A DNA stretch of 34,858 bases, taken from positions 1 through 34,858 of the forward strand of contig LXFE01003532.1 of NCBI GenBank assembly GCA_001929475.1, given 5' to 3'. The DNA comes from Neolecta irregularis DAH-3 (taxonomy: Eukaryota). The position numbers were made by a program, and so were the translations under genes. The notes beneath the pieces were generated by a model. It did not search any database, was not told the origin of the DNA, and saw only the letters and a list, made by a program, of their open reading frames with translations. Below are positions 1 to 34,138 of this stretch, piece after piece. Every line of letters begins with the position of its first letter. Within the stretch, counting starts at the first letter, position 1.

Positions 1-691
1 AAAAAGAGAAAACTACCTGTTGAGCACTCAGATACCGCGTTACCAAGAATAGCCAGCAAACGAATCAAACACCTCTCAAAATCGTCTTCAATACCGGTTG
101 CGCCGCTGCCAAAAGCCAGACCACCAGCCCCTGCACCATTAATTCCTATAAATCCCTTTACATCCCGTTCACTCACCTTTCTTTCACCCGGTGAACTCGT
201 AAAGCTTACTCGACAAAATACAACTCAAAATCGTTTGTATAATTGCGACTTTGACCGTGTCGTCATTCGAAAGAAAGAAGCGAGACCACCTAGTCCGAAT
301 CCCAAAGTAACAGCCCGAGCAGCCGCTGAGGCTCGCGCACAAAGAAAATTAAGGGAACTGGAGTTGGGATATGCTACTGGACCAGGTGACGATGACACTT
401 GGGGTCCGCCTCCTCAAATTACACCTACGAGAAAAGCCGTCAAATGGGGTTTAAAACTCGAAGAGGAGGACGATGTTAAATTGAGTGATCCTGCTCAAGC
501 AATCATCAAACGGCCCGAGAAGGGATGTCTCATTATCAAGGTTTGCCCTTCCGTTTCGAGATATTCTTACCTACCAGGCAAAATTGAACGAATTTGGAAA
601 TGTAATTGACCACAAGGACGATCCTTCTCCTACCAAGCCTTTTAAAGTCACAGTACAGAAAATTCTATATAGAGGTGAACGCGATGATTGA
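1..691 (+). CDS. 3' part of a fungal hypothetical protein (5' end outside window); exons <1-540, 578-691
   Basis: Frame 1 is open from base 1. A 37-nt GTTTGC...CCAG intron (541-577) joins KGCLIIK to AKLNEFGN...ILYRGERDD*. Basic/Pro-rich, with the motif LTRQNTTQN...RPPSP. Confidence 0.7.
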
Positions 692-812
692 TTTATGTTT
701 GGCATCATGGCATCTATGTATCATATTGTTATTTTCTTTTTACCTCTAGCTTTGCAAGGTCTGCAAGTCGGCGTTTATTCGTAATTACTTTCAATTTGAT
801 GCGGCTTTCTTT

Positions 813-1917
813 TTAATGTTGACGTACTATCAGAGAAAAAACATTATCCATGTCGTCAAACATCAGCCTGACGGTTTTATCCGACATTTTCTTGATAAAG
901 AAATCTTCAATTTCTTCATCCGAATGGCCAAATTCAAGCAATACAATATCGATCTGAAATATTAATACGGTACCACTACAACTTACCTCTAGTGCTTTAG
1001 CCATTGTTTCAACCATGTCCTTGGTATCTAACGGAACCCAAAATTCCGAATTATGGATATATTTATGGATTTGCTCTTTTACCTTACTATCGCTGATCAC
1101 ACCATCGCCAACCACAACCCCCCGTTTCTCAAACAGCGTTTTCAGTCGTGCGATCTCAGATTCGTATAACAGCGCCAAATGCAATTGTCTAAAATAGAGC
1201 ATAATCTGGTCAGCAACGACTTCTCCATTCCTTCCCCGTCGAGAGAATTCTACATCAAGATCGAGATCCTCGATATCAACTGATATACGGAATATTTCGG
1301 GAAATGTAAGCGATTTGGTGCCTGGAGAAAGCTCAAAGAGAATTTGTATGTGCCTGAAATAACCAAAGATAGTCTCCATGAGACTTTGGCGGACTTTGGC
1401 GGGGGCAGTTTGCATTAAACGAAAATACCCATATGCTACCGCTACAAATGTCAGATTTCAAGCTTTTGAGCAAGGGCATGTACAAGAATAGAAGCTGTTG
1501 GTACCGTGATCTGGAGTTATTATTCGATATTTATCATCTGCTAGTTCCTCGCCTTGATTAGCAAAACAAGAAAATAACAACTTACTACGAATATCGATTT
1601 CAGGTGATAGTCAACAAGTTGAAGTGCTTCGTAGTATTCCAGTGGATGGACAGCTGAAAATCTTGTGGCCTTGAAAAGGGTTTCACCGTCTGCAAAAGGG
1701 CTGGATGAGTATTCATCAACGTCGGTTAGAGTGACATCGGGTGATGAGAATTCATCAACGTCGGTTAGAGTGACATCTTGTGATGAGGAGGTCTCCGTTG
1801 CTACTATCGATTAGGCAAAACCAGGCTTTGGAACATGCTGTCTAAAGCGTCCAGGGCGCTCTTGGTAGCACTTAAAAATCCATTTAGCAATATCAAGACA
1901 ATGTAAAGGATATGCAT
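813..1917 (-). CDS. Secreted otubain (peptidase C65/OTU)-like protein, probably catalytically inactive, ~329 aa; exons 1917-1839, 1803-1586, 1547-1484, 1441-813
   Basis: ATG 1917 gives signal-like MHILYIVLILLNGFLSA. Introns of 35 nt (GC-AG), 38 nt (GTAAGT...CTAAT...GAG) and 42 nt join all exons in one 990-nt frame. Motifs GTNSFYSSVAYGYF, ADQIMLYFRQL, VETMAKALEV and VRLMF are collinear with otubain motifs (by eye). Confidence 0.6.
1704..1787. repeat. 39-bp tandem repeat (2 copies plus start of a third), coding 13-aa unit SS(Q/P)DVTLTDVDE(F/Y) on the minus strand
   Basis: gatgag(t/a)attcatcaacgtcggttagagtgacatc begins at 1704 and 1743; gatgag recurs at 1782. Confidence 0.9.
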
Positions 1918-30543: not shown

Positions 30544-30889
30544 TCATATAGCAATCAGCCCTTCAATTTGAGGATGTTTCAAGCTTTCTCGTGGGAACAA
30601 CATGCGACGCTAGCATTTTGGACTGCTCTCTAAAGAATATGTTCTGTGAATTGATTGGTTATCCCTCCAGTTTTCAATTTACCCCTAGCTTTTGAAGGTC
30701 CGATCTCGACCTTAAGGCTAGAAAGAGGCCCACTCGCTTTTTTGCAGATCCATGTGCTTCATGACTCGTGGTCGGTCCATAAACTAATTCAGTAACTCTT
30801 TTCCTCTGTTCCACTCCTATTTTTAGGCCAGCGTTAATATACAGCTGCTTTACGAGAATATCCAACAGTATCACCTACCGGCTCTTCGA

Positions 30890-33800
30890 ATGATGCTACA
30901 CCTACCGCATTCACAACCAGCTCACACAAGCAAATCACCCAGTAGATACGCCATACCCGGAATACGATATCTTCCACAACTTGTTGCAGTCCTTGATGAA
31001 AACTGCAAAGTCCAGTGCTCCTCAAAAGCTTTTTTAGCGGAGACAAACATTCGGATAAATTCGCCATTTGGAGCATTCGTTGAGGATTATGGAACCAATT
31101 TCGAGGACGTCGTAAAGAAAATCGATGGAGATAAAGATATTGAATTGAAAATTCGCGGGAAACGGTACCAGATTAACGTTGTGCATTGGCGAGAGGGGCT
31201 ACTAGATGGGTTCACCATCACATTAAAGGGAATGAAGGATACCAAGCCCTTTTCCAATCTACAAAAACTTGACGAGGTATTGACTCAACCGAAATCTTGA
31301 CTTAATAGGTAAAGTTAGCACGAAACACTTTTCCCGAGGCAATTTATACAGTGTCGCTGGACAGAAAGATCATACCATTCAACTATAAAGCCTTTGAGTT
31401 TCTGTATGAAAATTTCGATAATTTCAGTAGCATGGAAGAACCAATGTGTATTGATCGATTTTTGGAACGCTTTGACGTATGGGACGGTGACATGAATGAA
31501 AGAATAAATCTTGATACTACGAATCTTCCCGAACTTTTTCAGCATGAAACTACTGGTGAGCCTTGAGAAAGAGACATACCGCTCAATGAGGTAGTCGAAC
31601 CGAGGAAGTATACAATTTGTCGGAATGATGTTATTTCTAGAGAATTTGTTCAGCTCGCAATCAAGATGGAGATCTTAGTGGACAAAGATGGAGTTCATGG
31701 TGCTCTGATCAAGGCTTTGCATTTTAACCATTGGGAGAAACGCAAGAATAACCTTAAGAGGGATGCCTTTCGTGGTCTTTGCGAGGGTTTGTTATCTCTG
31801 GTTGACCAATATCTTTCACTTAGGTTTATCGACTCTCGTCTATACGCATGATCCTCTTGGGCAATTGGATTATTTCAACAGTTATACAAGAGAGTGGCTA
31901 GGTTCGGATGTACCGCGCGATTTTCAAAATCGATTTCTTCATCCTGATGAAGAATTACCATGTCGAACGCTCATGATTGAGAATATTCATCAAGGCAACG
32001 CATACACTATTCAACACAGAGCGCAGTTCAAAGACAGTTCTTACAAGTGGTTGAATAGTGTTCTCATCCCAGTGAGAGATTTAAGAACCAAAGAGATTGA
32101 GTGTTGGATAGGGTTGAGCGTTGATATACACGAACAAATGTCGTCAGCTGAAAGTGGGATTCTTTTGTGATGTTTACTAACACGGTGGAGAAGTGAAAAA
32201 TTTTCAAAACGCTCTTAAAGTAGGAACACAAGCAATTACGTATTGTATGTTTGATCGGGAGCTGAAATTTATCGACTGTGTGAGTGAACATCTTAGCCAG
32301 GATGGGAGATGGCTTCCAACTGAATATGTTCCTCCCGAAATTGTCGGAAAGAATGTTCTGGGTCAAACCTGGACGGATGTCCATGGCTGGCGTCAAGAAC
32401 AGATTGATCTTTTCGAGAAAATATTCTCAGGAGGGTTACCCTGGACATTTTTCGAGCACGAACTGAACGGTAAATATTGGAGAACCCTCTTCATTCCCTA
32501 TACAGAGGCCGGAACTTCAGAGTTCGGGCCTGTGACTCATATAGCTGGCTATTTGTTTGATCACAGCCATTTAAAAGAACAAGAAGATAAGTTCTTCCAG
32601 GCAATACTAGATACACAAACTGCCGAGCGTTCGAGTCGCATGAAAAGTGAATTTCGTATGATGGCTTGATTCATTAGACTACTAAGATCTAGTCGCTAAA
32701 ATGAGTCATGAATTACGAACACCTCTCAATGTAAGATCTTGACTGAAATGTTTACCGACCATGACAGGCCATAATTCCCATGTCGGAATTGCTTTTATCT
32801 GCGCCATCGAATGATGAGCTTAAAGGAACGATCCAGATTATTTACAAGGCAAGTAAAGCGTTAATGGGCGTAATTGAAGATATTCTGGACTATACCAAGA
32901 TTGAAGCTGGGTAATCTGTAAAATTGAGACATTTTTTAATGTTGATTAGCAAAATGACTTTAGAAGAAACTGTGTTCGAGATGAATGCAGTAATCGACAG
33001 TGCAATAGCCATTGTAAAGCATCCTCTCCAAGAAAAACGTCTAGAGTTTATCAACCACAATTCGCTTCAGAATGAAGTTTTCCTCGTCGGCGACCCATTT
33101 CGAACCCAGCAGATTCTTATCAACATTCTCACCAATGCAATCAAGTTTACATACAAAGGTCATGTTTCAATTTATACCCTCATGAAACAGATATGTCATG
33201 ACAGTAGCGGTTCTGAGTGTTCAGAAGTTCATTTCATCGTTAGCGATACCGGAATTGGGATCAGTGAGGAAGCTAAGAAGAATCTTTTCAAAGCCTTTGA
33301 ACAAGACTCCTCAACTGTGCGAAATTATGGCGGAAGCGGTCTGGGTCTCTGTATTTCGAAGCAACTGGTTGATCTAATGCATGGCTCCATAGACCTGGAC
33401 TCCAAAATTGGAGTTGGGACCAATATCAAAGTTATTGTCCCATATAAAATACCTATAGCGGAGGTATGCCGCATTAATTTAAAACAAGATGAGCAAACTT
33501 TGAGGAAGCGGGCAACCCCCGATATCGATTTATCCACGATGAAGATCTTAGTCGTGGAAGATAATGACGTGAACAAGAAGATAATTCTGAAATTACTTCA
33601 CAAACTGGGATTTCCCGTTGCCGATTCTGTAAAAAATGGGTGCGACCTTCCGAGCTACGCAAATTCAATTTATTAGCGTTGAAGCAATATGTGCAATAAC
33701 TAAATGCCGAAACTCCAAATACTCTATGTACGACCTTGTGTGAACCATATTACTAAAACGGGGCTTATTTTCTAGGTCTTAATGGATTGCCAAATGCCTA

Positions 33801-34138
33801 TAATGGGTATGCCATTCAACACCCAATATGCTGAACTGCAAGATGGCTATGATGCTACTCGAACGATTCGTCAAATGAACACCATTCAGACGAGTAACCT
33901 TCCAATTATTGCCTTGACCGCCAATGTGGTCCACGGGGATCGAGAGAAGTGTCTTGCTGCAGGCATGAACGATTACATAGCCAAACCAATCAATTTACCT
34001 GTCCTCAGAGAAACCATCGTAAAGTGGGTTTTACCGAAAAAACCAGCAAGCGATGAGCGTCCTACAAAGCTGATGCCATCCTTCAAACCAACACAGTTAG
34101 ATGAAGATTCTGAGATGAAGATTAGGTCTGAAGTATGA
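30890..34138 (+). CDS. Hybrid sensor histidine kinase: PAS-like domains, HisKA, HATPase, receiver; ~10 introns
   Basis: PAS (FLHPDE...YKWL...WIGLSVDIHEQ); H-box FLAKMSHELRTPLNAI; N-box QQILINILTNAIKFT; G1 VSDTGIGI; G2 GGSGLGL; receiver ILVVEDN, VLMDCQMPIMDGY, PIIALTAN, GMNDYIAKP. Confidence 0.95.

Follow-up and report, generated by a model that had tools for sequence, protein, structure and literature searches.

Candidate GC, GA and GG donors among the tiny introns of one Neolecta irregularis contig

Six of the very short introns modelled in a contig of the early-diverging, intron-rich ascomycete Neolecta irregularis DAH-3 (LXFE01003532.1; 34,858 nucleotides (nt), analysed over its entire length and called the window below) appear to carry GC, GA or GG in place of GT at the 5' splice site (donor). 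The reading preferred here, with a probability of about 0.6, is that the six sites are genuine-looking U2-type introns whose donors are off the norm at position +2 only, and that their density is unusual for a fungus. Junction positions were placed by homology; actual splicing and its mechanism are inferred. According to the genome paper, the N. irregularis assembly comprises 14.5 Mb with an N50 of 16 kb, 44% GC, 199-fold coverage and 5,546 genes, and fruiting-body RNA-seq exists; the words 'intron' and 'splic' are absent from the main text of that paper, the supplements of which may hold intron statistics or the annotation procedure. Literature searches combining Neolecta with intron or splice terms found no publication on splice sites in this fungus.

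Gene models were rebuilt independently, with VPS13 taken from the public protein, the genes for a nitronate monooxygenase (NMO) and a low-molecular-weight protein tyrosine phosphatase (LMW-PTP) from reading frames and homologs, and the remaining genes curated by hand from open-frame segments, Pfam coordinates and motifs (Table 1). The modelled introns had a median length of 38 nt (standard deviation (SD) 3.9; range 32-54), and 57 of the 61 fell within 32-44 nt. Their donors had G at +1 in all 61 cases, A at +3 in 48 and G at +5 in 37, amounting to an information content of approximately 5.2 bits over positions +1 to +6 (n = 61). A first-pass annotation of the same DNA had described about 60 tiny introns with six non-GT donors, and all six sites were present in the new census, as was every one of the degenerate GT donors it had listed (GTTTGT, GTTTGC, GTTTTA, GTATCA, GTACTT, GTGCGA and GTGGGA); the invariance of G at +1 that it had noted likewise held. 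The six non-GT introns were all of modal length (35-39 nt), with a branch-like YTRAY box and an AG acceptor. All four GC donors had both A at +3 and G at +5, the two bases that GC donors usually keep. U12-type (minor) introns are marked by a rigid ATATCC or GTATCC donor plus a TCCTTAAC branch box; U12-type donor or branch boxes were absent from all six non-GT donors and their 3' parts.

Table 1. Coordinates of the genes, introns and candidate donors considered in the window
Feature	Positions	Strand	Description	Basis
All modelled spliceosomal introns	541..33842	both	61 introns in ~12 genes; 55 GT, 4 GC, 1 GA, 1 GG	
GC-AG intron, orphan gene	1804..1838	-	GCATGT...CTAAT...ATAG, 35 nt	frame, length, signals
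NMO / NADH:quinone reductase-like gene	10060..11324	+	7 introns, model of 331 amino acids	homology
GC-AG intron, NMO	10095..10133	+	GCATGA, 39 nt, in frame, stop-free	profile, consensus
GC-AG intron, NMO	10160..10196	+	GCATGT, 37 nt	gap-free N-terminus, consensus
GT site, NMO	10679..10684	+	GTGAAG, in frame, 6 nt upstream of the GG site; donor of the public model, possibly tandem or alternative	
Probable GG-AG intron, NMO	10685..10720	+	GGAGAG, 36 nt	profile, Gly-Glu conservation
LMW-PTP (LTP1-like) gene	13318..13967	+	4 introns	homology
GT site, LMW-PTP	13345..13350	+	GTATGG, 5 nt before the GA site; as a donor it would be out of frame	
GA-AG intron, LMW-PTP	13350..13385	+	GAAAGC, 36 nt	catalytic-loop homology, consensus
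VPS13 gene	14039..24577	-	20 introns	public protein P0122, profile of 40 homologs
GC-AG intron, VPS13	16649..16686	-	GCACGT, 38 nt	profile, blastp, motif, consensus

A check against homolog profiles covered 31 of the 61 introns (20 in VPS13, 7 in NMO and 4 in LMW-PTP), while the other 30 were placed by frame logic, Pfam coordinates or motifs only, the intron at 842 being weak. Against the 1.3% non-GT-AG background of fungal annotations (Frey & Pucker 2020), the binomial probability was 1.2e-3 for at least five and 1.5e-4 for at least six non-GT donors among 61, 8e-3 for four GC donors among 61, and 6.8e-4 for at least four non-GT donors among the 31 homology-checked introns, nominal values for a window itself picked for this feature. 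Four introns (986(-), 10095, 11749 and 13783) had lengths that are multiples of three, with no in-frame stop, so that retention would keep the frame. In the DUF3429 gene (25200-25330, plus strand), the frame change could be achieved by GT 25293 (37 nt) or by GC 25281 or GC 25248 (49 nt each); the Pfam coordinates of the exon pieces overlap and cannot discriminate between these, and the junction was counted as GT, such that the non-GT total could rise by one. A dynamic-programming gene finder of our own proved too noisy: it split VPS13, proposed GC candidates at 9135 and 25248, and called false in-frame introns at 5728, 8859, 12032 (93 nt) and 33351, which were rejected because they lie inside conserved or continuous coding sequence. 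Hand curation was used instead.

For the junctions in the three genes with homologs, every in-frame G..AG alternative within 45 nt was scored against a profile built from 40 of 119 homologs (VPS13), 76 of 119 (NMO) or 41 full-length members of a set of 151 (LMW-PTP; 150 from an all-against-all search, plus P0242 from a word-index search). As a control, the accepted GT junction came out on top in 16 of the 20 VPS13 introns, all four NMO GT introns and two of three LMW-PTP introns. Profile score as the only criterion was dropped, having preferred wrong options at 16455, 16201, 18309 and 13783 as well as a 22-nt pseudo-intron at 10196. The higher-scoring alternatives at the four GT introns work by trimming or adding poorly conserved residues, and at VPS13 16455 the accepted junction was found by eye to be collinear with the conserved Q-A-[DN]-P of the homologs. 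A gain in score alone is no proof, and the criterion was therefore the collinear restoration of conserved residues. Such restoration was supported for each of GC 10095, GC 10160, GC 16686(-) and GA 13350, as judged from alignment of the predicted proteins. The public gene models use GT donors only, and were wrong or missing at four of the six non-GT junctions.

An exact mapping of the public VPS13 protein onto the window involves 20 GT-AG introns, one of which starts at GT 16661 and yields a stretch that matches no homolog. Splicing from GC 16686 would restore the sequence W-S-A-P-F-N-I at a place where 109 of the 119 homologs have W-[ST]-x-P-F, and raised the profile score to 166.1 bits, versus 145.4 for the public junction. 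The mean blastp score over the 119 homologs was 164.7 with GC 16686, 151.9 with GT 16661 and 139.0 with a 65-nt GT alternative.

Two GC introns and the GG candidate lie in the NMO gene, whose model was identical to a Saitoella homolog (P0004) at 239 of 331 positions, with two gaps on each side. GC 10095 was the best of 15 in-frame G..AG options (124.2 bits, versus 118.6 for the best GT), and retaining this intron lowered the whole-protein profile score from 572.9 to 562.8 bits, a cost of 10 bits. GC 10160 reached 143.4 bits versus 141.3 for the best GT option, a 52-nt intron that deletes residues. With both GC introns removed, the N-terminus was free of gaps relative to the Saitoella, Savitreella and Taphrina proteins. 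The public model (P0002; 308 amino acids) starts at a Met just past the second GC intron and so misses both GC introns plus 22 N-terminal residues; further downstream it uses GT 10679, dropping a conserved Gly-Glu pair, and it scored 524.3 bits against the whole-protein profile, versus 572.9 for the model with non-GT donors. At the latter junction GG 10685 scored 227.2 bits and GT 10679 219.1 (a gain of 8.1). The Gly-Glu pair following a His was found in all 111 homologs whose sequence spans the site, the other 8 of the 119 being fragments lacking the region, and residues 125-155 of the PA1024 structure (2gjl_A) end in the same His-Gly-Glu motif as the exon modelled with the GG donor; no account of the role of this pair in PA1024 was found in the literature. 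The probability that GG 10685 is used, possibly alongside GT 10679, is put at a little over one half. A 92%-identical relative (P0003) also keeps the Gly-Glu pair. This relative was found on six contigs of at most 1130 nt, and was thus probably read from spliced RNA. A metagenome scan with P0003 for contigs of the relative returned 80 loci at 56-65% identity only, which were not used further.

In the LMW-PTP gene, the alignment of exon 3 begins at residue 18 of yeast LTP1 (1d1p) and at residue 16-17 of other solved LMW-PTPs. Exon 3 thus starts past the catalytic loop, and the catalytic Cys must be encoded upstream. Exon 1 ends in the Val-Cys of the loop, and only the GA junction joins it to a 12-nt exon 2 in such a way as to give the C-x5-R loop, which was visible in 64 of the 151 retrieved relatives. 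GA 13350 scored 110.0 bits; the highest-scoring in-frame GT, by which the catalytic Cys is deleted, reached 93.3 (a difference of 16.7). The hexamer GAAAGC equals GTAAGC with A for T, and two further introns of this gene have GTAAGC as their donor. A public LMW-PTP model of at least 115 amino acids was not found; together with the four junctions wrong or missing in public models, this bears out the first-pass expectation that standard gene finders would mis-annotate such genes.

The remaining GC donor, 1838(-), lies in an orphan gene (~775-1917, minus strand) with a signal-peptide-like start, where the GC splice would join the first exon to the main open reading frame (ORF). The GT alternative at 1871 would give a 68-nt intron, longer than all 61 modelled introns, from a poor donor (GTGCTA). 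From frame, length and signals, the GC intron is plausible but unproven.

How donors are chosen was examined by leave-one-out ranking, for each acceptor, of every G located 25-70 nt upstream (on average 10.8 candidates, 3.0 of them GT). Length only placed the true donor first in 23 of 61 introns, the consensus at -3 to -1 and +3 to +6 (that is, without +2) in 34, length and consensus together in 48, and the two together with position +2 in 56. By consensus without +2, the non-GT donors ranked first at 1838 (of 11 candidates), 10095 (of 11), 10160 (of 14), 13350 (of 12) and 16686 (of 12). Sequence outside +2 is thus a better predictor of donors than length, and the GC and GA donors resemble good donors in all but one base, suggesting that pairing outside +2 still matters. 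The first-pass annotation had suggested a divergent spliceosome, with the donor perhaps set largely by its spacing from the branch point or 3' AG; in Neolecta, such a spliceosome would need only G at +1. Intron lengths are indeed uniform (the six non-GT introns included), the donor consensus is weak, and length adds to the prediction (from 34 to 48 of 61). A donor set largely by distance is nevertheless disfavoured, because consensus beats length and the GC and GA donors rank first; T at +2 is also still informative (from 48 to 56 of 61), and a weak donor consensus is reportedly usual in intron-rich fungi. The distance-based spliceosome did not find support here and is considered improbable.

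If, instead, the six sites are U2-type introns deviating at +2, four would be GC-AG introns of the well-known minor class, GA 13350 would be a GTAAGC donor with A for T, and GG 10685 could be a GG-AG donor alternating with the GT 6 nt upstream. The remaining donor consensus would still pair with U1 and U6, recognition of an intron of ~38 nt as one unit would add specificity, and a mismatch at +2 might so be tolerated. At the GA and GG sites, U1 recruitment may be aided by the GT lying 5-6 nt upstream, as reported for the GA donor of human FGFR. Several observations weigh against this reading. The sample is one 35-kb window chosen for the feature. Among the junction scores, alternatives beat the accepted GT at VPS13 16455, 16201 and 18309 by 17.8, 2.2 and 9.6 bits, and a 22-nt GG pseudo-intron at the 10160 site scored 146.1 bits, 2.7 higher than the GC intron (it was dropped as too short and lacking signals). 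GG 10685 is weak by its signals, ranking 7th of 17 by consensus and 6th of 17 with all signals included, while GT 10679 is in frame and ranks first overall. The 92%-identical NMO relative shares its internal Met start with the public Neolecta protein and gives no sign of GC-intron removal. The orphan gene at ~775-1917 matched no Pfam family, and no homologs support GC 1838. Base errors or allelic variants at +2 are possible as far as the sequence goes.

As an alternative, the cluster could be due to chance and decay, with the GC-AG introns real and ordinary, their density a matter of luck, and the GA and GG sites donors that mutated recently and are not spliced in the way modelled. NMO would then use GT 10679 as a cryptic donor and lose two residues, and the phosphatase would be dead or start at an internal Met. 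The signal rank of GT 10679, its frame and its choice by the public model fit this account, as do the single substitution that separates the GA hexamer from GTAAGC, the ATG that opens LMW-PTP exon 3, and the selection of the window for the feature, by which the binomial values overstate the case. Against it, the NMO and phosphatase genes show high conservation and no other damage, the catalytic loop is still encoded without a flaw in the exons upstream of the GA intron, the Gly-Glu pair is invariant (111 of 111 homologs), and the four GC donors among 61 already reach P = 8e-3 at the 1.3% background; chance and decay together are rated as rather unlikely. Errors of base calling or assembly, or allelic variants, at +2 could be invoked: the assembly is a draft with an N50 of 16 kb, the window contains two N runs, and each site except the GG site is one base from a good GT donor. 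At 199-fold coverage, however, six independent substitutions would all have had to strike +2 of real donors, and GC-AG introns are functional without any error, so that such an artefact is very improbable.

Other curated genes in the window encoded a histidine kinase, an MFS transporter, a GTPase, the DUF3429 protein, a makorin-like zinc-finger protein and several orphans. The makorin-like CCCH/RING gene (11476-12931, plus strand) had four short GT introns (11749, 11840, 11974 and 12084) and a zinc-finger spacing that is right only once spliced; the simple gene finder had merged part of it into the false 93-nt intron. No tRNA genes were found in the window, and Rfam gave no small nuclear RNA genes, its sole match being a full-length snR75 C/D box small nucleolar RNA (26995-27077, plus strand; 69.8 bits). 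The surroundings of snR75 (~26.0-28.4 kb) comprise 2.4 kb without convincing ORFs on either strand, and snR75 may lie within a non-coding host gene. Between two plus-strand genes, 100-codon ORFs were lacking from both strands of 4200-5600 (~1.4 kb), and Rfam gave no match there. Two runs of ten N (assembly gaps) were present at 9186-9195 and 34782-34791. The former breaks the Cys-rich, EGF-like part of an orphan gene starting at 7786, of which the part 5' of the gap was modelled, and is closely preceded by the GC donor candidate at 9135.

The six sites are interesting, yet unproven beyond one window. That N. irregularis tolerates, genome-wide, any base after G at +1 in ~5-10% of its very short introns is a tentative proposition with the odds against it. 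If true, N. irregularis would parallel Eurytemora and Oikopleura in having a relaxed donor dinucleotide, as the first fungus to do so, and a sizeable share of the 5,546 public Neolecta gene models would be truncated or locally wrong. Should the rate hold, Neolecta, being near the fission yeasts, would allow a comparative study of how short-intron spliceosomes tolerate a +2 mismatch. Studies of how complex multicellularity arose in Ascomycota use Neolecta as the key outgroup, with a gene set that rests on GT-based models. Public proteins are wrong for two of the three homology-checked genes, and none of at least 115 amino acids turned up for the third; analyses of gene presence/absence and of rates on the Neolecta gene set may therefore be affected.

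A weak 5' splice-site consensus is reportedly found in intron-rich fungi, where it is said to accompany very short introns. The Neolecta introns resemble these in their degenerate GTWNGY-like donors, in a box towards the 3' end that looks like a branch site, and in recognition units the size of an intron. A preprint by Sales-Lee et al. (2021) belongs to the same field of short introns and weak donors in intron-rich fungi; in this literature, as far as examined, a raised share of non-GT donors is not reported and Neolecta is not mentioned. GC-AG introns make up ~1% of introns in most eukaryotes, and GT-AG 98.7% in fungal annotations (Frey & Pucker 2020, PMC7072748). The four Neolecta GC introns are like the U2-type GC-AG class in having GC at +1/+2, an AG acceptor and an otherwise near-consensus donor; that class is spliced by the major spliceosome, to which the Neolecta introns would be assigned by sequence alone. 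In three of the four (10095, 10160 and 16686) the junction lies where homology requires it, while 1838 was placed by frame logic only. The local frequency (4 of 61, 6.6%) is several-fold higher than the fungal average, and two of the introns are adjacent in NMO.

For GA and GG donors the closest known parallels are in animals and in human cells. Donor usage in human cells follows the order GC > TT > AT > GA > GG > CT (Erkelenz 2018), and the 'dead-end' GA donor of human FGFR1-3 is supported by a GT 6 nt upstream (Brackenridge et al. 2003, as quoted by Erkelenz 2018 and by Frey & Pucker 2020). The NMO GG site likewise lies 6 nt downstream of a GT, with both in frame, so that isoforms differing by two residues are conceivable; in the phosphatase gene, unlike in FGFR, the GT precedes the GA by 5 nt and is out of frame. 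In the copepod Eurytemora affinis, GA and GG donors account for ~10-12% of introns (Robertson 2017, PMC5714493), and Oikopleura dioica also uses them (Frey & Pucker 2020, PMC7072748). Neolecta differs from Eurytemora in being a fungus and in its number of candidates, GA and GG amounting to 2 of 61 in one window as read from the DNA alone. An exon-final AG, described as obligatory in Eurytemora, is present at one of the two Neolecta sites (aag|GG at the GG site, atg|GA at the GA site). As in Eurytemora and Oikopleura, the Neolecta GA and GG sites keep G at +1, with A or G at +2 and A at +3, and, as in Eurytemora, pipelines restricted to GT and GC donors would yield truncated or split gene models.

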